DNA from: Myxococcota bacterium
GTDB taxonomy: Bacteria > Myxococcota_A > UBA9160 > UBA6930
Assembly (NCBI GenBank): GCA_028277885.1
Contig: JANQFK010000022.1
Span: 1,207 to 65,206 of the forward strand
Length of the DNA: 64,000 nt
Direction: 5' to 3'
This document shows, one piece after another, positions 3,488-31,461 of this stretch (the stretch's first letter is position 1; every line of letters begins with the position of its first letter). Under the pieces are notes generated by a model. That model ran no database searches. It had not been told where the DNA came from and was given only the letters and a program-made list of their open reading frames with translations. The position numbers and the translations under genes are program-made.

Positions 3488-3514
3488 GACGTCCTCCAGG
3501 GCCGCCCGGCAGGG

Positions 3515-3534
3515 TTGGCCGGCCGGCCAGTCAA
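3515..3534. promoter_or_regulatory. Putative TetR operator (imperfect 20-bp palindrome TTGGCCGGCCGGCCAGTCAA)
   Basis: 16/20 self-complementary, about 30-50 nt upstream of the tetR start. Autoregulation is inferred from family behaviour. Confidence 0.55.
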
Positions 3535-3625
3535 GAGGATGCCCAACGGCGCGCGGGCGTCAAACCCGCCCGGGGGCTGGAGCCCAACTACCCGTTCTGG
3601 CTCAGGATACTCTGGCAGGAAGGCG

Positions 3626-5419
3626 TCAGGAGGCCGGCAGGGCGCGGGCCCAGGTCGGGATCCCGCGGGAGAGCTGGGTCTCCAGCTCGGCCGCCGAGCT
3701 GGGGCGCGCGAACAGGTAGCCCTGCATGCGGGTGCAGCCCCGCTCGAGGAGCACGTCCCGCTGGGCCCGGTTCTCGACGCCCTCGGCCACCACCGCCACG
3801 CCGAGCTCCCGGGCGATCCCGATCAGCCCGGCGGTGATCGTCATGTCGGCGCTGCGCTTCGGGATCTCGCTCACGAAGCTGCGGTCGAGCTTGATGGTGT
3901 CGACGCTCAGGTGCTTGAGGGCCGAGAGGGCCGAGTAGCCCGTGCCGAAGTCGTCGATGGCGATGCGCACGCCGAGGTCCTGGATGCGGCGGACCGTGGT
4001 GAGGGTGATGCCGCGCTCCTGGAGCACGCTGCTCTCGGTGATCTCCAGCTCGAGGCGGTCCGGGGGGAGCGCGCTGTCGCGCAGCGCCCGGGCCACCACG
4101 AGGGCGAAGCTCGGGTCGGCGAGCTGGCGGGTGGAGACGTTCACGCCGATCTTGACGCCGCGTCCGCGCGGGTCGTTCCAGGCCGCGCCCTCGTTGCAGG
4201 CGGTGCGCATCACCCACTCGCCGATGGGGTGGATCAGCCCGGTCTCCTCGGCGATCGCGATCAGCTCCGGGGTGGCGACCGTGGTCCGGTCGGGCCCGCG
4301 CCAGCGCAGCAGCGCCTCCACGCCGTAGAGCGTCCCCGTCTCGAGATCGATCTGGGGCTGGTAGGCGAGGCCGAAGCCCTCCTCCTCGATGGCGCCGCGC
4401 AGGCCGTTCTCGAGCTCGAGGCGCCGGCTCACCACGGAGTTCATGGCCTCGGAGTAGTGGGAGAAGCGGTTCAGGCCCTCGGACTTGGCGTGGTACATCG
4501 CCGTGTCCGCGTTGCGCACCAGGGTCTCGGGGTCGAGCCCGTCGCGGGGGTAGAGCGCGATCCCGATGCTGGCCGTGACGCGGTAGTCGCTGCCCTCGAG
4601 CGCGCAGGGGGCGCTGATCGCCTCGATGAGCTTCTGGCAGACGCGGCCCGGGTCGTGCTCGCGCTTCACGTCCTGGAGCATCAGGACGAACTCGTCGCCG
4701 CCGAGCCGGGCCACCATGTCGCTCGAGCGCAGCACGCCGCGGATGCGCTCGGCCACGGTGCGCAGGAGCTGGTCGCCCGCCGGGTGGCCCAGGGTGTCGT
4801 TGATGTTCTTGAAGCGGTCGACGTCCAGGAACAGGACGCCCACCTCCTTGTTGCTGCGCGAGCTGTAGGCCAGGGTGCGGCGCAGCTGCTCCTCGTAGGC
4901 GAGCCGGTTGGGCAGGCCGGTGAGGGAGTCGTGGGTGGCGAGGTAGTGCTCCTGGCGCCGGGCCTGGGCGAGGTCGGCGAGGATGCGGTGGCGCTCCACG
5001 GCGTGGCGCACGGTGCGGTGCACGAGGCGCGGCTCCGGGTCGCGCTTCACCAGGTAGTCCTGGGCGCCGTAGCGCAGCGCCTCGAGCGCCAGGACCTCGT
5101 CGTCCTGGGACGTCATCGCGATGATGGGCACCGTGGCGGCGGCGACGCGAGCCCGGGCGAGCGCGTTGAGCCCCTCGCCCTCCTCGAGGCTCAGGTCGAG
5201 GAGCACGCACTGGAAGTCGCCGTCGCGCAGCGCGCGCAGGCCCTGCTCGAGGCCCTCCACGTGGGTGATGTCGAAGTGAACCTCCCGAGCCTGGGAGAGA
5301 ATCGCTTCGATCCACTTCGCGTCGTCGGCCTCGTCCTCGACGAGCAGGACCGGGATTCGCGGGATCGCGGCGGGACGCGCCGCGTCTGCGATGGCGGTAG
5401 CCGACATGAGCTGTGTCAT
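3626..5419 (-). CDS. Response-regulator receiver-GGDEF-EAL diguanylate cyclase/phosphodiesterase
   Basis: REC (LVEDE, VLLDL, YLVK); RSSD I-site plus ARLGGDEF; VEALLRW and IDDFGTGYS. Start uncertain (5425/5419/5407). Confidence 0.93.
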   Translation of the reverse strand: MTQLMSATAIADAARPAAIPRIPVLLVEDEADDAKWIEAILSQAREVHFDITHVEGLEQGLRALRDGDFQCVLLDLSLEEGEGLNALARARVAAATVPIIAMTSQDDEVLALEALRYGAQDYLVKRDPEPRLVHRTVRHAVERHRILADLAQARRQEHYLATHDSLTGLPNRLAYEEQLRRTLAYSSRSNKEVGVLFLDVDRFKNINDTLGHPAGDQLLRTVAERIRGVLRSSDMVARLGGDEFVLMLQDVKREHDPGRVCQKLIEAISAPCALEGSDYRVTASIGIALYPRDGLDPETLVRNADTAMYHAKSEGLNRFSHYSEAMNSVVSRRLELENGLRGAIEEEGFGLAYQPQIDLETGTLYGVEALLRWRGPDRTTVATPELIAIAEETGLIHPIGEWVMRTACNEGAAWNDPRGRGVKIGVNVSTRQLADPSFALVVARALRDSALPPDRLELEITESSVLQERGITLTTVRRIQDLGVRIAIDDFGTGYSALSALKHLSVDTIKLDRSFVSEIPKRSADMTITAGLIGIARELGVAVVAEGVENRAQRDVLLERGCTRMQGYLFARPSSAAELETQLSRGIPTWARALPAS

Positions 5420-5545
5420 CGGCAATACGCATGCAGAGGGTGAGTTTGAGTGAGGCTAAACACCCCGCTCCAACAGGGGGGGAGCAGTACGGTGACATTG
5501 GAAGGAGCCGTCTGCCGGAGCCGGGCCCGCCGCCGGGCCCCGGCG

Positions 5546-5962
5546 CTAGGAGGCGGAGCGCCCCTCCAGGGTGAGCGCCACCTCCTGGCCGTGGGCGATC
5601 TCGAGGGTGTGCTGGTCCGGGTCGGAGATCAGCGCCCAGTAGCCCACGGGGTAGCCCGAGTCGACGGGGCCGTGCACCGCGTGGCCGTCGGCCCGGGCCT
5701 TCTCGCACAGCGCATCCACCTCCTCCCGGGTGCGACAGCCGACGCCGAGGTGCGCGATGGGGAGCAGCGGGTTGCGCACCTCGGGCAGCTCGAGCAGCAC
5801 GATCACGAAGGGACGCGTGCGGTCGCTGATCCAGGCCACCCGCATGCCGGTGTCGCTGCGCTGGTGAACCACCTCCATGCGGGCGTACTCGGCGTAGAAC
5901 GCGAGGCTCGCGTCGAGGTCGGTCACCGGCAGCGCCACGTGGGTGAGGCCGACGTCGCTCAT
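5546..5962 (-). CDS. VOC/glyoxalase family protein
   Basis: LTHVALPVTDLDASLAFY...AHLGV...DPDQHTLEI. Confidence 0.9.
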   Translation of the reverse strand: MSDVGLTHVALPVTDLDASLAFYAEYARMEVVHQRSDTGMRVAWISDRTRPFVIVLLELPEVRNPLLPIAHLGVGCRTREEVDALCEKARADGHAVHGPVDSGYPVGYWALISDPDQHTLEIAHGQEVALTLEGRSAS

Positions 5963-6007
5963 CGGCGCGCAGTGTAGCGCCTCGTCCCTTCCGCGGGCCG
6001 GGCGGGC

Positions 6008-7549
6008 CTAGACGATCCGGCTCTCGTGGCCCTTCCAGTAGCGATCCCGCAGCAGGCGCTTGTAGAGCTTGCCCGTGGGATGGCGCGGCAGCTCCCGCTC
6101 GAAGTCGATGCTGCGCGGGCACTTGACGTGGGCGAGGCGCTCGCGACACCACGCCAGCAGCTCCTCGGCGAGCTCGGGGCCGGCCTCGTCGGGATCCAGC
6201 AGCTGGACCGCGGCCTTCACCTCCTCGCCGAACTCCTCGTTGGGGACGCCGAAGACCGCCACGTCTGCCACCCGGGGATGGGTGACGAGCACGTTCTCCG
6301 CCTCCTGGGGGTAGATGTTCACGCCCCCGGAGATGATCATGTAGGCCTTGCGGTCGGTGAGGAACAGGAAGCCCTCGTCGTCGAGGTAGCCGACGTCGCC
6401 GAGGGTCGACCAGCCGCTCGCGGTGCGGGACGCCGCCGTCTTCTCGGGGTCGTTGTGGTACTCGAAGCTCTCGCCGCCGCCGAAGTACACGGTCCCGGTC
6501 TCTCCCGCCGGCAGCTCCTCGCCGTGCTCGCCGAGGACGTGGACCTCGCCCCGCAGCGGCCTTCCCACGGAGCCCTTCTTGCGCAGCCACGTCTCGGAGT
6601 CGATGGCGGTGAAGCCGTTGCCCTCGGTGCCGGCGTAGTACTCGTGGATCACCGGCCCCCACCACTCGATCATCTGCTCCTTCACCGGGATCGGGCAGGG
6701 CGCCGCGGCGTGGATCGCGCAGCGCAGGCTCGACACGTCGAAGCGGACGCGCTCGGCCTCGGGGAGCTTCAGCATGCGGACGAACATGGTGGGCACCCAC
6801 TGGCCGTGGGTCACCCGGTGCGCCTCGATCAGCTCGAGGGCGCGCAGGGCGTCGAAGTGCTCCATCACCACGCAGGTCGCGCCGATCCGCTGCATCGCCA
6901 GGTTGAAGCGCAGCGGCGCCGCGTGGTAGAGCGGGGCCGGCGAGAGGTAGACGCTGCTCTCGTCGCAGCCGTAGAGCACTCCCATCAGCGCGAGGAGCGG
7001 CGGCGTGGTGCCGAAGGGCGCCCCCGCGCCGCGCACCACCACGCCCTTGGGCCGCCCCGTGGTGCCCGAGGAGTAGAGCATGTCGGCGCCCTCCACCTCG
7101 TCGGCGATGGGCGTGGCGGGCTGGGCCGCGGTGGCCTCCTCCCAGGAGGTCCAGCCGCGGCGCGCCTCGTCGAGCACGAGGTGGTGCTTCACGCCGGGCA
7201 GCCGGCCCGCGAGCCCGTCGGCGAGCTCGCCCAGGGCCGCGGAGGTGAGGAACGCCCGGGCACCGCAGTCCCCCACGATGTAGGCGACCTCGTCGGGGGT
7301 GAGGCGCGAGCTGATGGGGGTGTAGATCAGGCCCGAGCGCTGGGCCGCCCAGCACAGCTCGAAGAAGCGCGGGTGGTTCTCGAGGCAGAACGCGATGGAT
7401 TCGCCCGCGGCGAGGCCGAGGGAGCGGAACAGCTGGGCGCCCTGGTTGGAGCGCTCGTCGAGCTGGCGGTAGGTGGTCGTCTGGCCGCCGTCGGCCATCA
7501 CGACGGCGGGCTTGTCGGGATGACGGCGCGCGTGCTCTCCGGGGTGCAT
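6008..7549 (-). CDS. Acyl-CoA synthetase (AMP-binding family)
   Basis: YSSGTTGRPKG, YAGTE, GDVGYLDDEG, TGKL motifs. Confidence 0.93.
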   Translation of the reverse strand: MHPGEHARRHPDKPAVVMADGGQTTTYRQLDERSNQGAQLFRSLGLAAGESIAFCLENHPRFFELCWAAQRSGLIYTPISSRLTPDEVAYIVGDCGARAFLTSAALGELADGLAGRLPGVKHHLVLDEARRGWTSWEEATAAQPATPIADEVEGADMLYSSGTTGRPKGVVVRGAGAPFGTTPPLLALMGVLYGCDESSVYLSPAPLYHAAPLRFNLAMQRIGATCVVMEHFDALRALELIEAHRVTHGQWVPTMFVRMLKLPEAERVRFDVSSLRCAIHAAAPCPIPVKEQMIEWWGPVIHEYYAGTEGNGFTAIDSETWLRKKGSVGRPLRGEVHVLGEHGEELPAGETGTVYFGGGESFEYHNDPEKTAASRTASGWSTLGDVGYLDDEGFLFLTDRKAYMIISGGVNIYPQEAENVLVTHPRVADVAVFGVPNEEFGEEVKAAVQLLDPDEAGPELAEELLAWCRERLAHVKCPRSIDFERELPRHPTGKLYKRLLRDRYWKGHESRIV

Positions 7550-7558
7550 GGCGTCTCC

Positions 7559-8227
7559 TCAGGCCGTGGGCCGGCGCTCGAGCCCGTGCTGCTGGAGCCG
7601 CCAGAGCAGCAGGTCGAGGCGGTCCTGGCCGAAGAAGGGCTCGCCCTCGAACACGCAGGTGGGCACGCCCCAGTGGCCGCCGGCCTCGAGGGCCTGCTGG
7701 TTGGCCTCGATGGCGGCGTCGAAGCGCGGCGTGTCCGCGGCGACGGCTGCCTCGAGCTCCGCGAGGTCGAGGCCTGCGCGCGCGGTGGCGTCGGCCAGGT
7801 GGGAGCCCTCGTTCCAGCCGTCGACCTTGCCGTCCCAGATGATCTTCGAGACCTCGTCGAGGAAGGGCAGGCCGCGCCCGCGCTCCGCCGCGGCCACGCC
7901 CAGGCGGGTGAGACGGTGGGCGTGGGGCTGCTCCGGGGCGGTGCGCAGTCGGCCGTCCACCGGGGTCTGGACCACCGGGTCGGGTCGCGGGATCCCGATG
8001 TCGATGCCGTGGAACTGGCCCAGGCGCACCACGTCGCGCACCAGGTAGGGCGGCCACAGCGGGTTCACGCGGTCGAAGAAGTCCGGCTCGCGCACCGCGA
8101 TGGGGAGCACCGGCCGCACGTTCACGTCGAGGTCCCACTCGGCCTCGAGCTCCACGATGCGGGCCGTCGCCAGGTACGAGTAGGGGCTGCGGAAGGACCA
8201 GAACAGATCGAAGGCGAGGGTCGCCAC
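7559..8227 (-). CDS. 2-hydroxychromene-2-carboxylate isomerase / DsbA (GST-kappa) family protein
   Basis: FWSFRSPYSYL N-terminus and GVPTCVFEGEPFFGQDR C-terminus. Confidence 0.9.
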   Translation of the reverse strand: MATLAFDLFWSFRSPYSYLATARIVELEAEWDLDVNVRPVLPIAVREPDFFDRVNPLWPPYLVRDVVRLGQFHGIDIGIPRPDPVVQTPVDGRLRTAPEQPHAHRLTRLGVAAAERGRGLPFLDEVSKIIWDGKVDGWNEGSHLADATARAGLDLAELEAAVAADTPRFDAAIEANQQALEAGGHWGVPTCVFEGEPFFGQDRLDLLLWRLQQHGLERRPTA

Positions 8228-8264
8228 GGCGCCTCCAGCCCCCCAGCGGCGCCGCCAACGTAGC

Positions 8265-8848
8265 TCAGGGGTCCGGCGACCACGCCATGGCGGCCGCGAC
8301 GTCCCGCGCGGTGCCGAAGGGGCCCGGGTAGCCGATGGCGCGGTGGCTCGCGGGCTCGCCGTAGAAGGCCAGGGCCGCCACGGACTTCACGCCCTTGAAG
8401 AGGTCGCGCTTCAGGTCGAGGCGGGAGCCCATGCAGCTCGCGAGCACCGCGTCCTGGGCCGGCCCGGCGAGGGTGGTGAAGGGCCGCAGCTTCGGCAGCA
8501 GCGGCCACACCCCGAGCTCGAGGGCGAGGAGCCCCTGACCCAGCACGGCGCCGAGGGCGGGCGTCTCGCCCAGCCAGTCGTCGGCGCGGGCCGCCGGGTC
8601 GACGCGGCGGGTCTGGATCAGCACCTCGGCGGGCGGGCCGAGCAGCCGGGCGGCGGCGGCGTTGAGGGTCGCGTAGGCGCGGGGAGAGAGAACGCGCAGG
8701 CTGCGGTCCGCGGGCGGCCCGAGCTCGGGATCCCGGCAGCCGAGGGGCACGAGCCCGGCCGCCGACGCCGCGGCGACCCCGCGCAGGAAGGCTCGCCGGT
8801 GCATGGGAGCCAGTGCGCGCTCGAGGGCGGCGGTGGGCTCGGGACGGG

Positions 8849-8852
<4 letters not shown>
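8265..8852 (-). CDS. Tat-exported (lipo)protein, gluconate 2-dehydrogenase subunit 3-like partner of the GMC oxidoreductase
   Basis: HRRAFLRG twin-arginine motif, PLGC, C-terminal AIGYPGP; coupled to the GMC gene by a 4-nt overlap. Confidence 0.7.
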
Positions 8853-10321
<1,469 letters not shown>

Positions 10322-10362
10322 GGCCCGAGTATAGGAAGCGGTGGACGCGGTACCCTCGCTGC

Positions 10363-10959
10363 GTGCTCGAGCTCGCCGCCGAGACGTCGCCGGAGTGGGC
10401 CCGCTGGGCCGCCGCCCACCGCGACGAGGTCCTGGTGGACCACGCCCACTGCGAGAAGAAGGCGGCGGGCGCGGCGGTGAACCTGATCTTCCGCCACCCC
10501 GAGCGTCCCGGCTGGCTGGCGCCGCTCTCGGCCCTCGCCCGGGAGGAGCTCTCGCACTTCGAGGGCATGCTCGCCCACCTCGCGCGTCTCGGCGTGGCGT
10601 TCGGGCGCCAGCGTCCCGGCCCCTACGGCGGGAAGCTCCACGCCCGGGTCCGTGGCCGCGAGGGCGAGCGGCTGCTCGACACCCTGCTGTGCTGCGCCCT
10701 CATCGAGGCGCGCAGCTGCGAGCGCCTGGGCCTGCTCGCCGCCGAGCTCGACGACCCGGAGCTGGCCGCCTTCTACCGCGGGCTCCACGCCGCCGAGGCG
10801 CGGCACCACCGGCTCTACCTCGATCTCGCCGCCGAGGTGGCGCCCGCTGCGGAGGTGGCGACGCGCCTCGCCGAGCTGGCCCGCCACGAGGCCGCGGTGC
10901 TGGCCGCCACGCCCCCGCTGCCGCGGCTCCACGCCGGCGGGCTGGGGGGGTGCGATTGA
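10363..10959 (+). CDS. miaE: tRNA ms2i6A37 hydroxylase MiaE
   Basis: DHAHCEKKAA, AREELSHF, ALIEARSCER, EARH diiron motifs. Confidence 0.92.
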   Translation: MLELAAETSPEWARWAAAHRDEVLVDHAHCEKKAAGAAVNLIFRHPERPGWLAPLSALAREELSHFEGMLAHLARLGVAFGRQRPGPYGGKLHARVRGREGERLLDTLLCCALIEARSCERLGLLAAELDDPELAAFYRGLHAAEARHHRLYLDLAAEVAPAAEVATRLAELARHEAAVLAATPPLPRLHAGGLGGCD

Positions 10960-11001: not shown

Positions 11002-11226
11002 CGCTGGAAGGTGGCCCCGCTCCCTCGGAGCGGGGCGGCTCGACCTCCCGGGCACGGCGCCGCGCTGGCGCCCGCGACCGGGGGGGAGGGCTTCGGGAAG
11101 CCGGTGGGAATCCGGCACGAGCCCGTCGCTGTAACCGGACGCAATCCTCGAAGGACGCCACTGGCCCGCCGGGCTGGGAAGGCTCGAGGACCGGAGTCCG
11201 GAAGTCAGAAGACCGGCCTCCCAGCG
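11002..11226 (+). promoter_or_regulatory. Cobalamin (B12) riboswitch
   Basis: P1 CGCTGGAAGGT...GCCTCCCAGCG; core GGGAA-GCCGGTGGGAATCCGGC-ACGAGCCCGTCGCTGTAA; GCCACTG...GGGAAGGC; B12 box GAAGTCAGAAGACCGGCC. Upstream of a TonB-dependent receptor operon. Confidence 0.93.
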
Positions 11227-11235
11227 AGCTCAGCA

Positions 11236-11256
11236 CTTCCTTCGGGAGCAAGGAGG
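11236..11256 (+). promoter_or_regulatory. Riboswitch expression platform: hairpin sequestering a Shine-Dalgarno sequence
   Basis: CTTCCTT (11236-11242) pairs with AAGGAGG (11250-11256). The loop CGGGAGC can pair with CCCG in the L5 region (kissing loop). Confidence 0.7.
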
Positions 11257-11438
11257 CGAGTCGTCGTGAGCGGCGCATTCCCGGTCGGCATTCCTGCCCG
11301 CGCGTCGCGTCGCTCACGCCGTGTCCATCCGCAGGGGGCCAGGTCGGCGCCCGCGGTGCACCGGCCCCCGGCTGGAGCGACCCGCTCCCTCGTACCCCAC
11401 CGGGCGGCGTCGCCGCGCCGCCCCACCGGAGGCACCCC

Positions 11439-12392
11439 ATGGCCCCTCGCTGGCTGCGCATCCATCTTCCCTTCTTCCTCTCCGCAATCCTGACCGCGAC
11501 GGCTCACGCCGCTCCGATCGCGCCGGACTTCGTCGAGAGCCAGATCGCCACGCCCGACGTCGCCACCGGCGACCTGGTCGTCGTCGGTGACACGCTCTTC
11601 GTCGGGATCGGCCCCTTCCTCGACCAGGCGATCGTCCGCATCGGCCCGGGTGGCACCACGGTGATCGCCGACGGCTTCCAGTCCCTCGCGGGCCTGGCCT
11701 ACGACGCGGTGGGCGACCGGCTCGTGGCCGGCGACAACGTCGAGCAGAACGTCTTCTCCATCGCGTCGCCGTTCGGGAGCTTCGCGAGCCCCGTGGATCG
11801 CGGCACGCCGCTCATCTCCGCGGGCGGCCCGATCCCGGGCATCTCCGACGTGGTGCTCGACCCGGCCGATCCGACCGCGCTCCTCGTCTCGGACGCCGAC
11901 GACGACTTCGTGAGCCCCGACGGCAAGCTCTGGCGGGTCGCGGGAGGCGCAGCCACGGTGCTGCAGTCCGGCTTCGACTTCGCTGCTGGTCTGGCGGCCG
12001 ACGTCGGCGGCCTGTTCCTCGGCGAGTCCGACGCCATCACCTTCGGCGGCACGGTGCTCGGCCTCGCGCCCGACGGCACGGGCACGCCCTCCGTCCTCGC
12101 CTCGGGCCTGCCGGGCCAGTTCGACCTGGAGTTCGACGCCAACGGCGACCTGCTCTCCACCTCGGGGTCCCTGGTCCAGCGCATCGACGCGACCACCGGC
12201 GCCGTGGAGACCCTCGCGACGGGCTTCGTCTTCGCCGCCGGCCTGGCAACGAGCGGCGAGTCGTTCTACGTGATCGAAGGAGGCAGCCCCACCGCCGCGG
12301 TCTTTGCCTTCGATCCCGTTCCCGAGCCTTCGGTGGCGCTGCTGCTCGGGCTGGGTCTGGTCGGCATGGCACGGGTGACGGCGCGCCAATGA
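11439..12392 (+). CDS. PEP-CTERM sorting domain protein with beta-propeller-like repeats
   Basis: Signal peptide ending TAHA; C-terminal VPEPSVALLLGLGLVGMARVTARQ; repeats VIADGFQSLAGLAYD / VLQSGFDFAAGLAAD / VLASGLPGQFDLEFD / TLATGFVFAAGLATS. Confidence 0.88.
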   Translation: MAPRWLRIHLPFFLSAILTATAHAAPIAPDFVESQIATPDVATGDLVVVGDTLFVGIGPFLDQAIVRIGPGGTTVIADGFQSLAGLAYDAVGDRLVAGDNVEQNVFSIASPFGSFASPVDRGTPLISAGGPIPGISDVVLDPADPTALLVSDADDDFVSPDGKLWRVAGGAATVLQSGFDFAAGLAADVGGLFLGESDAITFGGTVLGLAPDGTGTPSVLASGLPGQFDLEFDANGDLLSTSGSLVQRIDATTGAVETLATGFVFAAGLATSGESFYVIEGGSPTAAVFAFDPVPEPSVALLLGLGLVGMARVTARQ

Positions 12393-14389
12393 CCGCCGCC
12401 CGGGCTGCGGCCGGCCTGGCGGCCCTCGTCTTCGCGGCCCCGCTGCTGGCGGAGCCGGCCCCGGAGAGCGAGCCGCCCGTGGTGCGCCGGACCGGACCGG
12501 CCCGGGTCGAGACCGTGGTCCCGAGCGAGCTCCCCGAGGACCCCACCGCGTTCACGACCGTGATCGAGGTGGACGACTTCGAGGCCGAGGCGGCGAGCGT
12601 CGAGGAGCTGCTCGGAGACGCCGTCGGCGTGCAGGTGCGCCGGTTCGGGGGCCCGGGGGAGCGCTCCGAGGTGTCGATCCGGGGCTCTACCTCGTCCCAG
12701 GTCGTCGTGCTCCTCGACGGCGTGCGGCTCAACACCGCACAGTCGGGAACCGTGGACCTCTCCACCGTTCCCCTCTCCCTGCTCGACCGGATCGAGGTCT
12801 CCCGGGGCGGAGGGTCGGTGCAGGCGGGGAGCGACTCCATCGGGGGCGTGATCAACCTGGTCACGCGGCGGCCCGGAGCCGAGACGGAGCGGCGCGTCGA
12901 GGGCAGCGCGGGCTCCTTCAGCACCTGGCAGGGGGCCGCGTTCCACCGCGGCCGCGTCGGCGGCACCGAGCTCGTGGCCGGCGTCGACGGGTTCACGACC
13001 GGCGGCGACTTCGAGTTCCAGCGCGCCTTCGAGACGCTTCCCGGGGGCGGCTCGGCGCCGCGTCTGCCCAATCCCCTCGAACGCATCAACAACCGCTCGC
13101 GCCGCTCCTCGTCCCTGGTCCGCATCGGTCGCGAGCTCGGGGACCGGACCCAGCTCTCGTTCCTGAACCACCTCGCCTACACGAGCCGTGGGCAGCCCGG
13201 ACTCGACAACACGTCGGACGCCGTCGGGGGGCAGCAGCGCGACGCGTGGGAGCGACGAACGCGAGTCGTGTCCTCCCTGCTCCTGGAGCGCTCCGAGCTG
13301 CCGCTCTCGACGATCGGACGCGCGCGCCTGTACCACCGCTGGGAGCGCACCCGCTTCGACGATCCGGCGCCCCAGCTCGGCGGGCCCATCGACACCCTGA
13401 ACCGCAACGGCGCCTTCGGGCTCGACCTCGAGCTCGACGGCTCGTTCCGGACCGGCTGGATCGACCATCGCCCCCGCTTCGTCGGTGCGCTCCGCCGTGA
13501 CACCCTCGACTCGAACGAGTCCGACGACCAGCGGCGCCGCTCGCTGGGGCTCGCCGTCCAGGACGATCTCAGCCTGTTCGGCTCGCGCCTGCGTCTGGTG
13601 CCCGCCCTCCGACTGGACGACACCGAGGGGTTCGGTGCCGAGTACCTTCCACGGATCGGGGTGGCGGTGGAGCTGCTGCCCGGGCTGCGCCTGCTCGCCA
13701 ACGCCGAGCGCTCCTACCGGGCGCCCAACCTCGACGAGCTCTTCTTTCCGGACAAGGGCTTCCTGCGCGGAAACCCGGGGCTGCTTCCGGAAGAGGCGGA
13801 GAACCTCGATGCCGGCCTCCAGCTCGCCCTGGCCCGGCTGGGTCCGCTCGAAGACGTGAACGTCGAGCTCGTCGGCTTCCGCAACGAGATCGAGAACTCG
13901 ATCGTCTTCGTCCTGGTGAGCTCGGGCACCGTGGCGCCCGTCAACACCGGCGACGCCCGGATCGAAGGACTCGAGGTCTCGCTCTCCTTCGGCGTGGCGG
14001 GCTGGATTCGGGTCGCCGCCAACTACACCGACCTCGACGCCGAGCTGAGCTCGCTGGGCACGCCGCTGCCCGGCCGCGCGGACCGGGAGGCCTCGGTGCG
14101 GGTCGAGCTGGGGCCGCCCTCGGGCGTGCTGCGCCTGACCGGCGAGCTCCGGCACACGGGCGAGATCCCGGTGAGCTTCTCGGGGCTCACGGCGCTCTCG
14201 GACCGGACCGTCTACGACGCCAGCATCGTCGCCGACCTCACCCGCTTCGCCCCGCGGCTCGGATTGGAGCTGCGGTCCCTGCTGCTCTCCTTCGGTGGCC
14301 GGAACCTCACGGATCGGGCCGTGCGGGACGCCCAGTTCTTCCCCCAGCCGGGCCGCTCGCTCTTCCTGGGCTTCCAGGTGGGCTTCTGA
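12389..14389 (+). CDS. btuB: TonB-dependent receptor, probable cobalamin transporter (BtuB-like)
   Basis: Plug motifs SIRGS, VVVLLDGVRLN, RIEVSRGGGS, GGVINLVT; SYRAPNLDELF; terminal Phe. Substrate is inferred from the riboswitch. Confidence 0.85.
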   Translation: MTAARAAAGLAALVFAAPLLAEPAPESEPPVVRRTGPARVETVVPSELPEDPTAFTTVIEVDDFEAEAASVEELLGDAVGVQVRRFGGPGERSEVSIRGSTSSQVVVLLDGVRLNTAQSGTVDLSTVPLSLLDRIEVSRGGGSVQAGSDSIGGVINLVTRRPGAETERRVEGSAGSFSTWQGAAFHRGRVGGTELVAGVDGFTTGGDFEFQRAFETLPGGGSAPRLPNPLERINNRSRRSSSLVRIGRELGDRTQLSFLNHLAYTSRGQPGLDNTSDAVGGQQRDAWERRTRVVSSLLLERSELPLSTIGRARLYHRWERTRFDDPAPQLGGPIDTLNRNGAFGLDLELDGSFRTGWIDHRPRFVGALRRDTLDSNESDDQRRRSLGLAVQDDLSLFGSRLRLVPALRLDDTEGFGAEYLPRIGVAVELLPGLRLLANAERSYRAPNLDELFFPDKGFLRGNPGLLPEEAENLDAGLQLALARLGPLEDVNVELVGFRNEIENSIVFVLVSSGTVAPVNTGDARIEGLEVSLSFGVAGWIRVAANYTDLDAELSSLGTPLPGRADREASVRVELGPPSGVLRLTGELRHTGEIPVSFSGLTALSDRTVYDASIVADLTRFAPRLGLELRSLLLSFGGRNLTDRAVRDAQFFPQPGRSLFLGFQVGF

Positions 14390-15966
14390 TGCGGCGCTGG
14401 GGAGCGTGCGTCGGGATCGCGACGACGTCCCTGCTGCTGGTCGCGGGGTCCTGCGGCGGCGGCAGCGGCAGCGGGGGGCGCGGCAGCGTCGACCGCTCCG
14501 GAAGCGTCGGCGGCCCCGACGGGGTGGCGTGCACGCTGCTGCCGGGGATCTTTCCACCGGGCCTCGACTTCGTACCGGGCCTGCCCGACCGGCTCGTGGC
14601 TGCGAACCTCTCGCCGGCCGGCCTGTTTCCCTTCGAAGCCACGTCGCCGCCGGTGGTCTCGGCGCCGGGGGCCCCGCAGATCCCGCCCGACAGCGACGGG
14701 GACGGGCTGCCCGACTTCCTCGCCCCCGTGCTCGACGGGGTGCTGGCCGTGAACCCCGACCTCGCGCTGCTCACGGCCAGCACGAACGAGCAGGTGCTGT
14801 TTGTCGACCCCGAGAGCGGCGAGCTGCGCTTCTTCGAGATCGAGGTGCCGGCCGGATTCGACCCCGACGCCTACCGCTTCCTCCCGGCCCCGGGGACCAG
14901 CGCCTTGCGGACCGCGGTCTCGACCCGGGCCTGCGTGCCCCTTCCGCCCGGCGCCGTGGACTCCGCCGGCGACCCCTTCGCGGGCTCCGCGGATTGCGCC
15001 CCCGGTCGTGTCTCGACGAGCTTCACCTCGGGCGTCGCCGTCGCCGCGGGGCGGCTCTTCGTCTCCACCTCGAACCTGGGCGCCCGCCAGGGCGCAGCGG
15101 ACACGCAGTTCCTGCCCGGCACGGTGCTGGTGTTCGAGCTGGACCTGGGTCTCGACCCGCCGCGGGTGCGCCCCGACCCGGCGGCGCCCTTTCTCCTCAC
15201 GACGGCCTTCAACCCGACCCACGTGACCCGCGTGGTGACGCCGGGCGGGCGCGAGCTCGTCCTCGTCACCCTCTCCGGCGCGTTGGGGCTGATCCTCGAC
15301 GACCCCGGCACGCCGCAGCTCGAGGCGGGCGGCATCCCCCTCAGCGACGCGGCGATCGACGTGATCGACCCCGCGACGCTGGAGCCGATCGCGACGATCC
15401 CCCTCGGCCTGGCGGCTCCGTCCTTCGACCGGCTGGCGGTGGACCCGAGCGGTCGCGTCGCCTTCACGGGAGGCAACGCGGCGCGGGAGCTCTTCGCGGT
15501 GGATCTGGCCGCCCTCGACTTGGCACCCACGACGGGTCCGCCGGCGGTGCTCGACGGGACGGATCCCCGCGCGAGCAACGCCGACGCACGGATCTTCGAC
15601 GCGACCCGACCGCTCGCGATCCCCGGGATCGCGGGCGGCGCTCCGCCCGAGACCTGCGCGGGATTCGTCACCAGCACCGCCTTCGACGCCGTGGGCGGCG
15701 AGCTCTTCGCACTCGACTTCTGCGACGGGACCCTCGCCCGGGTGAGCGTGGACCTCTCGGGCGCTCCGCCGGTCCCCGTGCCGGGCGACCGCTTCGTGGT
15801 GGACCGGGTGGTTCCCGTGGCCGCGCCCGTGGGTGCGGGCTCCCTGGGCCTCTCCCGAGCCCCGGGAGCGCTGCGCGTCCGCCCGGGCCCGGGTCAGCCG
15901 GACCTCTTCTTCCTCCTGAGCCTCGAGGAGGGGCAGCTGTGCGCCGCCGACAGCACCTCGCTCTGA
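14389..15966 (+). CDS. Lipoprotein with YncE-like beta-propeller (candidate surface B12-binding lid)
   Basis: Lipobox-like LLVAGSC then a Gly/Ser linker; DSDGDG loop; blades AIDVIDPATLEPIATIPLG and RLAVDPSGRVAFTG. ATG overlaps the receptor stop. Confidence 0.7.
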   Translation: MRRWGACVGIATTSLLLVAGSCGGGSGSGGRGSVDRSGSVGGPDGVACTLLPGIFPPGLDFVPGLPDRLVAANLSPAGLFPFEATSPPVVSAPGAPQIPPDSDGDGLPDFLAPVLDGVLAVNPDLALLTASTNEQVLFVDPESGELRFFEIEVPAGFDPDAYRFLPAPGTSALRTAVSTRACVPLPPGAVDSAGDPFAGSADCAPGRVSTSFTSGVAVAAGRLFVSTSNLGARQGAADTQFLPGTVLVFELDLGLDPPRVRPDPAAPFLLTTAFNPTHVTRVVTPGGRELVLVTLSGALGLILDDPGTPQLEAGGIPLSDAAIDVIDPATLEPIATIPLGLAAPSFDRLAVDPSGRVAFTGGNAARELFAVDLAALDLAPTTGPPAVLDGTDPRASNADARIFDATRPLAIPGIAGGAPPETCAGFVTSTAFDAVGGELFALDFCDGTLARVSVDLSGAPPVPVPGDRFVVDRVVPVAAPVGAGSLGLSRAPGALRVRPGPGQPDLFFLLSLEEGQLCAADSTSL

Positions 15967-16880
15967 TCGCGTCCGGCCTGCTCGGGCTCGTGGCCCTGCC
16001 GGTGCTCGACGTCCCGGCGTCCCGGTCGGAACGCCCGCCGGCCGGCGATGGCCCGGGGAGCGCGGGGCGGGAGCCGCCCCATGTTCCGGCTGCCTCCGGC
16101 CCGTCGCGTGCGTCGCCTGCCACGCCGGGCGACCCGGCTGCCCGCGCACCGGTGCGATCGACCTCCGTCGGCGCCGCCCGGGAGGTGGCGCGGCCCGCCG
16201 AAGCGGTTGCGGGGGCCGAGGTTCGCGGCGTTGCGGCGCCGGACCCGGGAAGACCCGGCTCCTCGGCGGGGGCGCCGCAGCTCGACGCCATCGTGGCCGA
16301 CCCGGGTGCGCTCACGGTGCGCGTCACCGGCGTCGATCCGCGCGCGCCGCGGCTCCTCGATCTCTGGCACGTCCGGGAGGATCCGGTCCGTCGCATGACG
16401 CTCGGCGGTCCGGTGGAGATCCGCCACGCGGTCGGCCTCGCCGCGCGCGGCTGGAGCGACTCCTCGGGAGAGATCCACTTCCCTCCGGTGCCGGTCGCCC
16501 CGGGATCCGTGCGCTTCGCGGCCGCACCCGAGGGCGTTCATCCCCTGGCGGCGCCGGCCTCGCCGCTCCAGGGCGTGACGCGCCCCGCGCCCGAGCCCCC
16601 CGGCTTCGAGGTTCTCGAGCAGGGCGGCGGAGAGGTGCGTCTCAGGGTCTCGCCACGGGAGCCGGGCGGGCGCGTCGTCGTCGCCGACTCCGCCCTCGAG
16701 CCCCACGCCGTGGAGGCGCTCCCGGCGGGCCCGGGCCCCCGGCCGCTCGTCTTCGAGGTGGACCTCGCGCTCGGCCCGCGGGCCCACTCGCTGTTTCTGG
16801 CCCAGGAACGTCCGGACGGACAGCGCTCGAGCTGGGCGCGCGTCGCACTGGACCTCGACTCCAAGGAGGAGAAACCATGA
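15939..16880 (+). CDS. Hypothetical exported/membrane-anchored protein (Pro/Ala-rich linker plus beta-rich domain)
   Basis: C-terminal part of ORF 14295..16880. GTG 15939 follows GAGGAGGGG; N-terminus RRRQHLALIASGLLGLVAL; stop overlaps the next ATG (ATGA). Confidence 0.65.
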   Translation: MRRRQHLALIASGLLGLVALPVLDVPASRSERPPAGDGPGSAGREPPHVPAASGPSRASPATPGDPAARAPVRSTSVGAAREVARPAEAVAGAEVRGVAAPDPGRPGSSAGAPQLDAIVADPGALTVRVTGVDPRAPRLLDLWHVREDPVRRMTLGGPVEIRHAVGLAARGWSDSSGEIHFPPVPVAPGSVRFAAAPEGVHPLAAPASPLQGVTRPAPEPPGFEVLEQGGGEVRLRVSPREPGGRVVVADSALEPHAVEALPAGPGPRPLVFEVDLALGPRAHSLFLAQERPDGQRSSWARVALDLDSKEEKP

Positions 16881-17929
16881 AGGCCCTTCCCACCATCGGA
16901 GCCCTCGCTGGCCTCGCCGTCGCGCTCCTCGGCGCCAACTGCACGCCCGCGAAGCCCCGGATCAAGCCCGTCGAGCCCGCCGTCGGCTCCACCGTCACCT
17001 GGGCACCGATCGACGTGGTGTTCGACCTGGCCCAGAGCGTCGACGTCGGCACGCTCCTCGTCGAGCTCAACGGAACGGACGTGACCGGCTTCTTCCAGGT
17101 CGGGCCCCCCGTCGGTGGGCGCATCCTCGTGAGCGCCGACCGGCTCTGGCTGGACGGGGCCCTCCTGCAGGGACCGAACGTCGTCCGGCTCGAGGCCCGC
17201 TTCAACGGCAACGTCGTCTCGAGGAGCGTCCCCTTCGAGGCCGAGGGCGACGCCTACGCCGATGCGCTGGTCCAGTACACCGCGGGGAGCGGCGGGGGGT
17301 TCGGGGCGAGCGGCCTGCCCGACGTCGTGACGGGCCCGCCCTCGGGTGCGGGCTACTTCCAGGGCTCGTTCGACGTGGTGTCCCTCGGCCTCGGGGGCTC
17401 CATCGAGCTCGAGTTCGTCGACAACGTGGTCGTGGATGGCCCGGGCTTCGACCTCACGATCTTCGAGAACGCCTTCCTCACCCTCCTGGGCCTGATCACC
17501 GACTCGGTGTTCAGCGAGCCGGGGCGGGTGCTGGTGAGCCAGGACGGGGTGGGCTGGGTGGCGTTCCCCTGTGCGCTCGACGTCCTCGAGCATCCCCTCT
17601 ACCCCGGCTGCGCGGGCGTCTACCCCGTGTTGTCGAACGCGCTGTATCCCGCGACGGGCCACGCGTCGATTCCGAGTGAGACGCCCGTCGACGATCTGCT
17701 CGGAGTCGATGCCACCACCCTGGTGCCCGAGGGCTCCGGTGGAGACAGCTTCGACCTCGCCGACGTGGGCCTCACCTGGGCGCGCTTCGTCCGGATCGAG
17801 GCGGCTCCCTTCGTGGTCGGTCCCGTGGGCGCCGATACCGCGGGCTTCGACCTCGACGCCGTCGTGGCGGCGCGCTCCGCCCCGGCGACGGACCTGAACG
17901 GCAACGGCATCCCGGACGCGGTCGAGTAG
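16877..17929 (+). CDS. Cell-surface lipoprotein: Ig-like domain plus BtuH-like domain
   Basis: LLGANC lipobox; VSLGLGGSIELEF...DGPGFDLTIFENAF...SEPGRVLVSQDG...GGDSFDLADVG...RFVRI...GFDLDAV. The resemblance to BtuH-type domains is from recall. Confidence 0.7.
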   Translation: MKALPTIGALAGLAVALLGANCTPAKPRIKPVEPAVGSTVTWAPIDVVFDLAQSVDVGTLLVELNGTDVTGFFQVGPPVGGRILVSADRLWLDGALLQGPNVVRLEARFNGNVVSRSVPFEAEGDAYADALVQYTAGSGGGFGASGLPDVVTGPPSGAGYFQGSFDVVSLGLGGSIELEFVDNVVVDGPGFDLTIFENAFLTLLGLITDSVFSEPGRVLVSQDGVGWVAFPCALDVLEHPLYPGCAGVYPVLSNALYPATGHASIPSETPVDDLLGVDATTLVPEGSGGDSFDLADVGLTWARFVRIEAAPFVVGPVGADTAGFDLDAVVAARSAPATDLNGNGIPDAVE

Positions 17930-17932
17930 GCC

Positions 17933-18382
17933 CTAGCGGGGAGCGTCGATCTCGAAGCGGATGGGGACCTCGATGCGTCCGTAGACCGCCGGGAAGGGGC
18001 CGGCCCGGCTCACGGCACGCAGGGCCGCCCGATCCAGCGCGGGCGAGCCCGAGGAGCGCTCGATGCGGACGTCCCGCGCGTGGCGTCGGCCGTCGAGAGC
18101 GAAGCCCACGATCGCCTCGCCCTCGACGCCTCGGTGGCGGGCGAGGCTCGGGTACTCGAGGGCGCCTTCGACTCGACGCCGGATCTCGTCGAGGCGGTCG
18201 GCGAGGGGCCGGCCCGCAGGGACGGCATCCATGACCGGGGGCCGGGCCGGCACGTCGACGGGACGGACCGACGGCTCCGTGGGCTCCGCTGGGGTCGCGC
18301 ACGCGAGGGCCAGGCCAGCACCCATGCCGATCCCTGCGGCGAGGACCGCGAGCCGGCCACGGTGGGAGTCACGGACCCTCAA
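17933..18382 (-). CDS. Short TonB C-terminal domain (energy transducer TonB family) protein
   Basis: YPSLARHRGVEGEAIVGF...RSSGSPALDRAALRAV...VPIRF; probable TTG start overlapping the aminotransferase stop. Confidence 0.82.
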   Translation of the reverse strand: MRVRDSHRGRLAVLAAGIGMGAGLALACATPAEPTEPSVRPVDVPARPPVMDAVPAGRPLADRLDEIRRRVEGALEYPSLARHRGVEGEAIVGFALDGRRHARDVRIERSSGSPALDRAALRAVSRAGPFPAVYGRIEVPIRFEIDAPR

Positions 18383-19503
18383 CCGGCAGCCCCAACCCGC
18401 TCGGCCCGCAGGGCCGCGAGCAGGCGCTCCACGTTCTCCACCCGGGCGTTCTCGCCCATCAGCCCCACCCGCCAGATCGCGCCGGCGAGCTTGCCGAGGC
18501 CGCCGCCCACCTCGATGCCGTGCTCCGTGAGGAGCCGCCGGCGCAGCGCCGCCTCGGGCGCACCGCACAGGGCCTCGGGCAGCCGCAGGGTGGTGAGCAT
18601 CGGCAGGCGGATCGCCTCGGGCACCAGGGGCTCGAAGCCCAGCGGAGCGACGCCCTCGAGGAGCGCACCGGCGGCCTCGCGGTGGCGTGCGGCCCGTGCC
18701 TCGAGGCCCTCCTCGCCGACCAGGCGCAGCCCCTCGAGCAGCGCGTAGATCGCCGAGATGGGTGCGGTGTGGTGGTAGACGCGCTCGCCGCCGAAGTAGC
18801 CGGCCAGCAGGGTGACGTCGAGGTACCAGCTCTGGACCGGTGTCGCGCGCCCGCGCACCCGCTCGACGGCGCGCTCGCTGAAGCTCACCGGGGAGAGGCC
18901 GGGCGGGCAGGAGAGGCACTTCTGGGTGCCGCTGTAGGCCGCGTCCACCCCCCAGGCGTCGAGCTCCACGGGCAGCCCGGAGAGCGAGGTGACGCAGTCG
19001 AGCACCACGAAGGCGTCGACGCCGCGCGCCGCCGCTGCGATCTCCTCGACGGGCTGGTACACCCCCGTCGACGTCTCGGCGTGGACGAGGCTCACCACCG
19101 TGGGCCGCACCCGCTCGATGGCGGAGCCCATCGCGTCGGGGTCGAGGGCGGTGCCGGGCTCGGTCTCGACCCGCGTGACGCGTGCGCCGATGCGCGTCGC
19201 CACGTCGGCCATGCGCTCGCCGAACACGCCCGCCACACCCACCACCACGTCGTCTCCGCGCTCGAGCAGGTTGGCGAGGCAGGCCTCCATGCCGGCGCTG
19301 CCCGTGGCCGAGAGCGGCAGGGTGAACGGGTTGCGCGTGCCGAACAGCGGTCGCAGCCGCTCCTGGACCTCGTCCATCAGCGCCAGGAACGCGGGGTCCA
19401 GGTGACCGAGCAGGGGCTGGGCCATGGCGCGCCGCACGCGCTCGGGCACGTTCGACGGGCCCGGGCCCAGGAGCAGGCGGGCGGGCAGGGTGGGGCTCGA
19501 CAT
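18379..19503 (-). CDS. Alanine-glyoxylate / serine-pyruvate aminotransferase (class V PLP enzyme)
   Basis: LLLGPGPSNV, VHAETSTGV, DCVTS, SGTQKCLSCPPG, YHHT. Confidence 0.93.
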   Translation of the reverse strand: MSSPTLPARLLLGPGPSNVPERVRRAMAQPLLGHLDPAFLALMDEVQERLRPLFGTRNPFTLPLSATGSAGMEACLANLLERGDDVVVGVAGVFGERMADVATRIGARVTRVETEPGTALDPDAMGSAIERVRPTVVSLVHAETSTGVYQPVEEIAAAARGVDAFVVLDCVTSLSGLPVELDAWGVDAAYSGTQKCLSCPPGLSPVSFSERAVERVRGRATPVQSWYLDVTLLAGYFGGERVYHHTAPISAIYALLEGLRLVGEEGLEARAARHREAAGALLEGVAPLGFEPLVPEAIRLPMLTTLRLPEALCGAPEAALRRRLLTEHGIEVGGGLGKLAGAIWRVGLMGENARVENVERLLAALRAERVGAAG

Positions 19504-19560
19504 GCCCGCGAGAGTACCCGGCCCGCGCGGCGACGCGCCTCGCGCGTGGAGCCGGGCTGC

Positions 19561-19589
19561 TTGACACCCCCGGGGCCCCTCCGTAGGGT
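19561..19589 (+). promoter_or_regulatory. Sigma70-type promoter TTGACA-N17-TAGGGT
   Basis: Consensus -35 with a 17-nt spacer, upstream of the small ORF-dgt-cutA operon. Confidence 0.7.
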
Positions 19590-19647
19590 CTTCCGCGTTC
19601 CCCCGCCTCATCCCCCACCCGGCCGGTCTGCAGGAGATCCCCCTCGC

Positions 19648-19800
19648 GTGAGGCGCTGGCTCGCAGTCTCCCTCGCCCTCGTCGTCGCACTGGGTGCCGC
19701 CTACGTGCTGGCCACGAGCGGCGCCCACCAGCACGCGCCGGAGATCGACGAGGCCTCGCGCCGCAAGCTGGTCGAGGTGCTGAGGGACGAGTCCCCGTGA
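19648..19800 (+). CDS. Small (50 aa) single-TM hypothetical protein
   Basis: AGGAG upstream of GTG; MRRWLAVSLALVVALGAAYVLATSGAHQHAPEIDEASRRKLVEVLRDESP; stop overlaps the dgt start (GTGA). Confidence 0.65.
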   Translation: MRRWLAVSLALVVALGAAYVLATSGAHQHAPEIDEASRRKLVEVLRDESP

Positions 19801-31385: not shown

Positions 31386-31461
31386 GGCGGTGTAGCTCAG
31401 GGGTTAGAGCAGCGGTTTCATAAGCCGCGTGTCGGTAGTTCGATTCTACCCACCGCCACCA
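31386..31461 (+). tRNA. tRNA-Met (CAT), elongator type
   Basis: GGCGGTG/CACCGCC acceptor stem, anticodon arm GCGGT-TTCATAA-GCCGC, T arm GGTAG-TTCGATT-CTACC, encoded CCA. G1-C72 is paired and the three G-C initiator pairs are absent. Ile2 is not fully excluded. Confidence 0.93.

Follow-up and report, generated by a model that had tools for sequence, protein, structure and literature searches.

A cobalamin riboswitch operon in a Myxococcota genome encoding a BtuB-like receptor, candidate surface cobamide-capture proteins and a BtuH-like fold

Introduction

Most microbes need vitamin B12 but few make it, and the way in which auxotrophs capture it therefore shapes communities. Uptake assisted by surface lipoproteins has so far been worked out almost solely in gut Bacteroides. 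Here, we describe a five-gene operon (g1 to g5) behind a cobalamin riboswitch in a Myxococcota bacterium (GTDB lineage Bacteria; Myxococcota_A; UBA9160; UBA6930), within a window of 64,000 nucleotides, the whole stretch of DNA that was analysed (assembly GCA_028277885.1, contig JANQFK010000022.1, positions 1,207 to 65,206, forward strand), and compare it with the described systems that lie closest to it.

The fullest model is the BtuB-BtuG-BtuH-BtuJ-BtuK relay of Bacteroides thetaiotaomicron, which the available texts present as the product of a B12-riboswitch-controlled operon (PMC8941943; PMC10404256; PMC13616437). As characterised there, BtuH2 combines N-terminal immunoglobulin (Ig)-like domains with a C-terminal B12-binding domain “with no known structural homologs” (Putnam 2022, PMC8941943), and BtuG1 bears a fused BtuH domain (Abellon-Ruiz 2023, PMC10404256). 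BtuH homologues are placed predominantly in Bacteroidota, plus three Firmicutes, in the available text of a September 2026 review (PMC13616437). A further B12-binding jelly-roll family, DUF4465 (BtuJ), is described as often co-located with TonB-dependent receptors and propellers; proteins of several phyla bind B12 experimentally (Clarke 2026, PMC13398666), and Myxococcota are among the clades with DUF4465 named in the Fig. 1 legend of that paper.

Like the Bacteroides relay, the locus is headed by a B12 riboswitch, places the gene for a seven-bladed propeller lipoprotein directly after that for a BtuB-type receptor, and encodes both a lipoprotein that pairs an Ig-like with a BtuH-fold domain and an extra propeller protein (cf. 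BtuK). Also in common are DUF4465/BtuJ, here in relatives’ operons, and an organism apparently unable to make B12. Both follow the same logic and, judged from structural models, have at least one fold, that of BtuH, in common. The differences are these: the organism belongs to another phylum, represented by a Myxococcota-like metagenome-assembled genome (MAG) with 73.6% GC (guanine-cytosine content); g3 and g5 are Pfam orphans that in structural alignment are at best ∼20% identical to Bacteroides proteins; g5 has one Ig-like domain whereas BtuH2 has three; g1 and the relatives’ DUF4465 proteins carry PEP-CTERM/exosortase anchors instead of being lipoproteins; no Bacteroides counterpart was found for g4; and the ATP-binding cassette (ABC) importer lies outside the locus. 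Escherichia coli btuB, with its adenosylcobalamin riboswitch, offers a simpler comparison, since there too a riboswitch controls a TonB-dependent B12 receptor and BtuF/BtuC-like genes are unlinked, but E. coli has no surface accessory proteins, whereas four further exported proteins are coupled to the receptor here.

Results

A cobalamin riboswitch heads five overlapping genes

Riboswitch and genes, all on the plus strand, span 11094–17929 of the window, the genes alone 11439–17929 (Table 1). The initial annotation, made from the sequence alone, had placed a cobalamin riboswitch at the head of five co-oriented genes with overlapping ends, export signals in all five products and no btuCDF-type ABC genes in the window, and each of these points was borne out. 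An Rfam scan matches RF00174 at 83.3 bits (E 5.1e-19, model positions 45–169 of 189), far above the gathering score of 31.5, and this is the sole RF00174 match found in the 5.19 Mb genome (150 of 365 first-look candidates scored). The genes overlap at every junction exactly as had been listed (ATGA at g1/g2 and g4/g5, TGATG at g2/g3, 28 nt at g3/g4), which is the pattern expected of translational coupling. Export signals were judged by eye and found in g1 to g5, and no FecCD permease lies anywhere on the window’s contig.

A leader of 223 nt separates the end of the aptamer from the g1 start. Within it, at window 11250–11270, a strong Shine-Dalgarno-like AAGGAGG is followed by GTG, about 170 nt before g1 begins and out of frame with that gene; this element may belong to the expression platform or mark a short leader open reading frame.

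The receptor–g3–g5 unit and its riboswitch are conserved

A survey of one genome per species returned at least 460 stretches encoding a g5 relative, of which 78 loci were kept, mostly from Myxococcota MAGs and cultured Myxococcus, Corallococcus, Pyxidicoccus and Sorangium, with Binatia and a few others. Full-length g5 homologues occur in 24 loci, 20 of which have enough upstream DNA, and in all 20, plus one short-form locus, a receptor (42–54% identity) and a g3 homologue (41–55%) lie upstream of g5 on the same strand. Receptor, g3 and g5 are thus conserved together in 21/21 syntenic loci, with g3 directly 3′ of the BtuB-like receptor in every one. The commonest gene order among relatives is receptor, g3, g4, g1, g5, the g1-first order of the window being unusual; g4 was detected in about half of the syntenic loci, and three consist of receptor, g3 and g5 only. 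In one relative (L032, 4266–6498) receptor matches fall in two frames (residues 24–165 and 227–666); either the gene is frameshifted or a pseudogene, or the assembly is wrong here.

Riboswitches accompany these genes closely. Rfam finds one upstream of the receptor in all seven syntenic loci tested, and 79 invariant columns of the aptamer core are common to the window and seven syntenic relatives. A covariance model (R1) built from the core alignment of the syntenic-locus riboswitches matches 63 of the 78 loci, and in 60 of the 78 the match lies on the same strand upstream of the g5-like domain; Rfam confirmed 16/16 R1 matches in seven further loci (14 loci rechecked overall). Every syntenic locus with DNA upstream of the receptor carries the riboswitch (19/19), and the 15 loci with no R1 match comprise short contigs and contig edges but also long loci (e.g. 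L069 and L073).

In three loci (L036, L037 and L066) the g5-like domain has its own riboswitch, with no receptor in the same operon. The last of these, from Myxococcus xanthus AM003 (2171–10573), has one riboswitch heading a receptor, a Stig1/NHL protein, a Peripla_BP_2 (BtuF-like) protein and a FecCD (BtuC-like) permease, and a second heading an unknown 521-aa gene followed by a 287-aa g5-like gene; the 521-aa product is dissimilar to g3 (best BLASTP E 2.3). More widely, cultured Myxococcus and Corallococcus (L066, L038, L047, L055, L059 and L062) have two or three such riboswitches in a stretch of 10 kb, one heading btuB-NHL-btuF-btuC homologues and another a ∼520-aa gene with a short g5-like gene.

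Across the window’s phylum, the g5 C-domain profile matches 196 of 301 sampled genomes and 175 of the 272 high-quality ones, with 106 matches at E < 1e-49 among the matches listed.

The C-terminal domain of g5 has a BtuH fold

The boldest guess of the initial annotation, that g5 is a BtuH-like lipoprotein, was upheld by Foldseek, by structural re-alignment and by a search of 48,161 PDB representative chains that was independent of Foldseek preselection. The AlphaFold2 (AF2) model of g5, with a mean predicted local distance difference test (pLDDT) score of 75.9, consists of an Ig-like domain at residues ∼26–124 (structural matches at Z 9–11.7 for residues 26–124) and a C-domain at ∼124–334. The top PDB match in Foldseek is 7BIZ, BtuH2 of B. 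thetaiotaomicron (E 3.8e-8), and residues 124–333 superpose on BtuH2 317–592 (7biz_A) with Z 12.3, a root-mean-square deviation (rmsd) of 3.0, 158 aligned residues and 20% identity. The C-domain also aligns with the H-domain of BtuG1 (8blw_B, residues 392–660; Z 11.1, rmsd 3.7, 157 aligned) and, in the search of 48,161 chains, with 7biz_B (Z 11.8, rmsd 3.2, 160 aligned). BtuH2 and the BtuG1 H-domain are the only well-superposed matches to this domain among those chains, the other rows that cover it having an rmsd above 11.

Across the family (1136 homologues), the g5 signal peptide ends in a conserved Cys, E197-N198 are invariant and F200 is near-invariant. By conjecture, E197-N198 and F200 might correspond to N399 and F401 of BtuH2, whose ligand- and metal-site (Ca/Na) residues are Y510, W511, W577, H476, N399 and Q333; E406, E584, D522 and S582. 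D290/D293 and D325/D327 of g5 are likewise invariant and are further candidate counterparts of the BtuH2 site residues. The C-terminus (window 17891–17926) carries a motif that is near-invariant in the full-length family, TD-x-NGNG-I/V-PDAVE, and resembles one calcium-binding repeat of the thrombospondin type 3 kind. Binatia-like relatives extend ∼250 residues beyond this tail.

g5 has no Pfam family: PF16819 and PF14717 are matched by 0/34 family members, and membership of DUF4465 was rejected as there is no sequence match to PF14717. The model for the LIC_13355 family lipoprotein (NF033170) is matched by all 24 diverse g5 C-domains tried, below its cut-off (best E 6.2e-17); the window’s g5 reaches 31–33 bits against a cut-off of 120 and so is no member. 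LIC_13355 of Leptospira has been published as a lipoprotein binding host components, and the available text of that report studies it in this role only, with no recognised domain and no mention of B12 (PMC11891782). It is possible that LIC_13355 also adopts the BtuH fold and binds B12.

A BtuB-like receptor and a candidate lid

The initial annotation’s TonB receptor and propeller lipoprotein were both recovered as g2 and g3. A signal peptide (by eye) precedes Plug (PF07715, 78 bits) and TonB-dependent barrel (PF00593, 125.9 bits) domains in g2, whose top NCBIfam family is TIGR01779 (TonB-B12, 173.7 bits). Among PDB sequences, g2 matches E. coli BtuB best (E 6.3e-34, 120.7 bits), the next receptor being Cir at 75.4 bits.

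In g3, a lipobox (VAGS-C, by eye) is followed by a Gly/Ser tether. The family (300 homologues) has six invariant Cys, and 0/32 members match any relevant Pfam family. The AF2 model is a seven-bladed propeller with pLDDT 88.5 and a predicted template modelling (pTM) score of 0.89, for which structure search ties E. coli YncE and Ciao1 at Z 31.0 with ∼300 residues aligned. Like BtuG, g3 unites a propeller, a lipoprotein signal and a btuB neighbour, with a fold match that is unspecific to BtuG; as the likeness consists of fold class and gene position only, plus a weak co-fold score, we treat g3 as a candidate lid.

That score comes from co-folding g3 with residues 160–666 of g2, as the initial annotation had proposed for accessory proteins and receptor. 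It reached 0.40 (runs 0.34, 0.54 and 0.40) against 0.00 for the best control, for a verdict of “weak support”, and the runs share at least 69% of contacts with a partner pLDDT of at least 85. In the calibration set, 58 of the 80 solved complexes and 2 of the 110 mismatched pairs attain the mark, and the range up to 0.60, into which g2–g3 falls, holds 7 of the 80 solved complexes and both mismatched pairs. The score adds a small increment only to the case for a receptor–lid pairing.

PEP-CTERM sorting of g1 and DUF4465 proteins in the same slot

The first gene product proved, as annotated, to be an NHL-type propeller with a PEP-CTERM tail. A Sec signal (..TATAHA/AP, by eye) stands at its N-terminus, and the C-terminus combines VPEP, a transmembrane helix and a basic tail, matching PF07589 at 21.5 bits (cut-off 20.7) and TIGR02595 at 16.2 bits (cut-off 16). 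The protein atlas scores g1 at 0.96 to NHL-repeat plus PEP-CTERM clusters; its ScyD/ScyE-like similarity is weak (34 bits, under cut-off). A single exosortase gene (PF09721, 187.8 bits, C39:398476–399237) lies on the same contig as the window, so that every mark of a PEP-CTERM/exosortase substrate (PEP motif, transmembrane helix, basic tail and genomic exosortase) is present. g1-like matches occur in 17 of the 78 g5-domain loci and in eight of the syntenic ones.

In three relatives (L002, L003 and L016), the slot that g1 takes in the window, after the riboswitch and before the receptor gene, holds a gene that encodes a DUF4465 domain with a PEP-CTERM tail (Table 1), which points to exosortase-sorted B12 capture proteins. 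PF14717 (DUF4465/BtuJ) has no match among the five operon proteins, nor in the genome, which is 89.55% complete. PEP-CTERM and exosortase have zero occurrences in the main text of the DUF4465 paper (PMC13398666).

g4 belongs to a large orphan family

The fourth gene, annotated at first as an unknown component, encodes an N-terminal hydrophobic anchor or signal, a Pro/Ala/Gly/Arg-rich linker of ∼100 residues and a conserved C-terminal domain of ∼190 residues. Its GC by codon position (0.85/0.61/0.87) is ambiguous, being equal to that of the antisense frame. Despite this, we read g4 as a real gene of an uncharacterised family with no known relation, because its C-terminal domain is conserved in the same slot of relatives and belongs to a large profile family: the domain recurs at 28–35% identity in 12 loci, with the motifs G-x-DP-x-APR-x3-LWR and DG-x-RS-x-W, and its profile collects 276 cluster representatives at E ≤ 1e-3 and 229 at ≤ 1e-10. 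The representatives are mostly 280–320 aa long, with the domain at about residues 110–300.

Pfam and NCBIfam hold nothing relevant to g4, a word-index search returned g4 alone, and the best PDB sequence match, a biofilm surface protein, has an E value of only 0.28. The atlas pointed to CarboxypepD_reg-like (prealbumin-like) sandwiches at scores of only 0.77–0.80, under the 0.9 guide, and a TonB-like reading, which the arrangement of anchor, Pro-rich linker and C-domain had brought to mind, was dropped as there is no TonB_C match.

Use and import of B12 in the genome

Eight PF02310 B12-binding domains score over the Pfam cut-off, and CbiC and CobS have 0 matches in the genome (at its stated completeness, an absence that is unproven). 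These gene contents fit an organism that needs to import complete cobamides. Only one g5-like gene is present. FecCD has three matches, on contigs C6, C82 and C62; at C6:68900–70900 (L084, 4936–6900) a Peripla_BP_2 gene is followed directly by a FecCD permease gene, with housekeeping genes (polyprenyl synthetase, enolase) on either side and no riboswitch found at the locus. This pair is a candidate BtuFC and the likeliest inner-membrane B12 importer, and because the genome thus has BtuF- and BtuC-like genes outside the operon, passage across the inner membrane is probably of the conventional kind. Contig C82 (26000–38000; L085) holds a second TonB-dependent receptor locus, with a TSP3/CBM96/dockerin-like protein, a FecCD permease and another PEP-CTERM protein.

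Gene boundaries and flanks

Upstream, a MiaE gene ends at 10959, and downstream a class-V aminotransferase gene converges on the operon (18379–19734). Both are unrelated to it, which limits the unit to the riboswitch and its five genes. Third codon positions have a GC fraction of 0.92–0.93 in g1, g2, g3 and g5, in a genome with 73.6% GC overall. Farther off, also unrelated to the operon, the window holds a tRNA gene at 31386–31458 (plus strand; RF00005, 66.9 bits).

Table 1. Features of the operon (window coordinates) and DUF4465 genes in the equivalent slot of three relatives (locus coordinates).
Feature	Position	Strand or place	Basis
Cobalamin riboswitch aptamer (RF00174)	11094–11215	+	Rfam, 83.3 bits
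g1, secreted NHL-type beta-propeller with PEP-CTERM tail, 317 aa	11439–12392	+	Pfam, NCBIfam, atlas
g2, BtuB-like TonB-dependent receptor, 666 aa	12389–14389	+	Plug and barrel; best PDB match BtuB
g3, seven-bladed beta-propeller lipoprotein, 525 aa, candidate BtuG-like lid	14389–15966	+	AF2 model, gene position
g4, anchored protein of a Pfam-orphan family, 313 aa, GTG start	15939–16880	+	Conserved C-terminal domain
g5, probable lipoprotein, 350 aa, Ig-like and BtuH-fold C-domain	16877–17929	+	AF2 model, structure search
DUF4465 + PEP-CTERM genes	L002:4458–5354; L003:4177–5439; L016:4573–5415	First gene after riboswitch	159–169 bits

Discussion

We read the locus as a riboswitch-repressed operon for outer-membrane cobamide uptake, helped by surface capture proteins, and put the probability of this reading at roughly three in four. 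Far less confidence attaches to the individual roles of g1, g3 and g4 than to the assignment of the locus to B12 uptake. At low intracellular levels of coenzyme B12, the leader would permit expression of the five coupled genes. g5, displayed at the surface, would catch free cobamide with its BtuH-fold domain, held off the membrane by the Ig-like spacer, and then hand it on; g2 would be the channel, and g3, which may also bind B12, would cap its extracellular face, as BtuG does on Bacteroides BtuB. The exosortase-sorted NHL propeller g1 may be an extra surface component, possibly itself binding B12, in the slot that relatives give to a PEP-CTERM DUF4465 binder, and g4 may be an anchored accessory protein. 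Transport across the inner membrane would fall to the BtuF/BtuC-like ABC system on contig C6. The corrinoid-scavenging interpretation of the initial annotation gains from conserved synteny, riboswitch linkage, the DUF4465 binders of relatives and the apparent dependence on B12 import.

Several observations weigh against this reading. g2 falls under the BtuB equivalog cut-offs (TIGR01779, 173.7 vs 599.7 bits; NF007926, 126.6 vs 836), and we call it BtuB-like and no equivalog because these are missed though BtuB is both its best family and its best PDB match. In the structural comparison with BtuG that the annotation had proposed, g3 meets BtuG2 (8bmz) only at Foldseek rank 45, outside the VIA top 50, and is equally near generic seven-bladed propellers, Z declining just from 31.0 to 29.2 across the top 50, with no match to PF16819 (DUF5074) at E ≤ 0.1 for g3 itself and 0/32 family members matching at E ≤ 1. 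A weak co-fold pass such as that of g2 and g3 is, by calibration, oftener wrong than right unless the pairing is likely beforehand.

On the side of g5, the lipobox in the window is non-canonical, with Asn at −1, and the loops at the putative ligand site are poorly modelled (pLDDT < 50 at 144–165 and 248–271). A g5 profile (A1) searched against PDB sequences reaches 8blw_B at a non-significant E of 0.19 over 59 residues, and a broader one (A6) finds no BtuH chain at E ≤ 10. In the leader, no consensus terminator was found by scan and the fold is not distinctive (z-score −1.07), so that no expression platform is definable; likewise, neither the surroundings of the leader nor the DNA downstream of g5 gave a match to promoter or terminator consensus sequences. 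The distribution of the g5 domain is also patchy, with 0/9 among other sampled genomes of the window’s own family, which suggests either loss in the family or acquisition by the window’s genome.

These points leave room for a plain btuB operon, in which g2 alone serves B12 and g1, g3, g4 and g5 are passengers with roles in adhesion, predation, or polysaccharide or protein binding. That g1 and g3 are generic propellers with no family assignment, that g4 has no known fold, that the g5 fold match comes from a model with a mean pLDDT of 75.9 and that the g5 relative LIC_13355 is described, in the available text, as a host-component binder (PMC11891782) all agree with it. Passengers would be expected to lose their linkage, however, whereas receptor, g3 and g5 have stayed together in 21/21 syntenic loci despite protein identities of ∼50%, and in 60 of 78 loci a cobalamin riboswitch precedes the g5-like domain, even in operons that have no receptor. 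Since, in addition, the g5 C-domain matches no PDB folds other than two BtuH domains that bind B12 and the relatives’ operon holds a proven B12-binding family, DUF4465, we regard a passenger role for the four as unlikely. The more specific idea that the likeness of g5 to BtuH arose by convergence on a common jelly-roll-like sandwich, g5 being really a carbohydrate- or protein-binding module, draws on the sialidase carbohydrate-binding modules and SusE-like proteins that Foldseek also returns (E 7e-7 to 3e-5), on identities of 18–22% to BtuH domains in structural alignments and on the non-significant sequence profiles. Yet on re-alignment none of the carbohydrate modules remains in the top 50, and both BtuH domains keep their place, at Z 11–12 over ∼160 residues; the marginal A1 match to 8blw_B sits in the structurally equivalent region and has a common motif (SLG-x-GG...DF...NA...EPG-x-V-x-VS-x-D); and riboswitch linkage on this scale would be unexpected for a lectin. 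Convergence therefore seems to us highly improbable.

A different substrate would leave the surface machinery in place and change its cargo to cobinamide, corrinoid precursors or another metallo-tetrapyrrole, with the riboswitch merely sensing B12 status. The receptor gives some scope for this, since it lies below the BtuB equivalog cut-offs and likewise matches haem and siderophore receptor families at 106–112 bits, and BtuH2 is described as binding chiefly via the corrin ring and the nucleotide loop, its contact with the lower ligand being weak (Putnam 2022, PMC8941943), so that a BtuH-fold protein could accept varied corrinoids. BtuB is clearly the best receptor match for g2, though, and with no CobS or CbiC match in the 89.55% complete genome, the organism could apparently not turn incomplete corrinoids into the complete cofactor that its B12-binding domains, at least eight in number, need. 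We consider such a substrate decidedly unlikely, and uptake of complete cobamides remains the reading we prefer.

A system of this composition was also said at the outset to be uncharacterised, and the literature search agrees, as the texts found contain no description of it; supplementary material, such as the btuH homologues in Table S3 of Putnam or the neighbourhood data for DUF4465, lay outside its scope. It is conceivable, though we hold this with less than even confidence, that Myxococcota and Binatia-like lineages own a widespread multi-protein extracellular cobamide relay parallel to that of Bacteroidota, with a divergent BtuH-fold lipoprotein family, a distinct seven-bladed lid on BtuB, the fast-evolving anchored protein g4 and, for capture proteins, PEP-CTERM sorting in place of lipidation. 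On that wider view, the PEP-CTERM pathway would have a first role in nutrient uptake, the “adhesin” family of Leptospira LIC_13355 would be B12 binders, and lipoprotein-assisted TonB-dependent B12 transport would be a general strategy of B12-auxotrophic environmental Gram-negatives and not a speciality of gut Bacteroidota.

If the uptake reading is true, the relay model would extend to soil and marine predatory bacteria, and several large orphan families (g3, g4 and g5) would acquire a function. The exosortase pathway would be linked to nutrient capture. M. xanthus, which has a B12-dependent CarH light response and a g5-like gene beside btuBFC homologues, would offer a genetic system.

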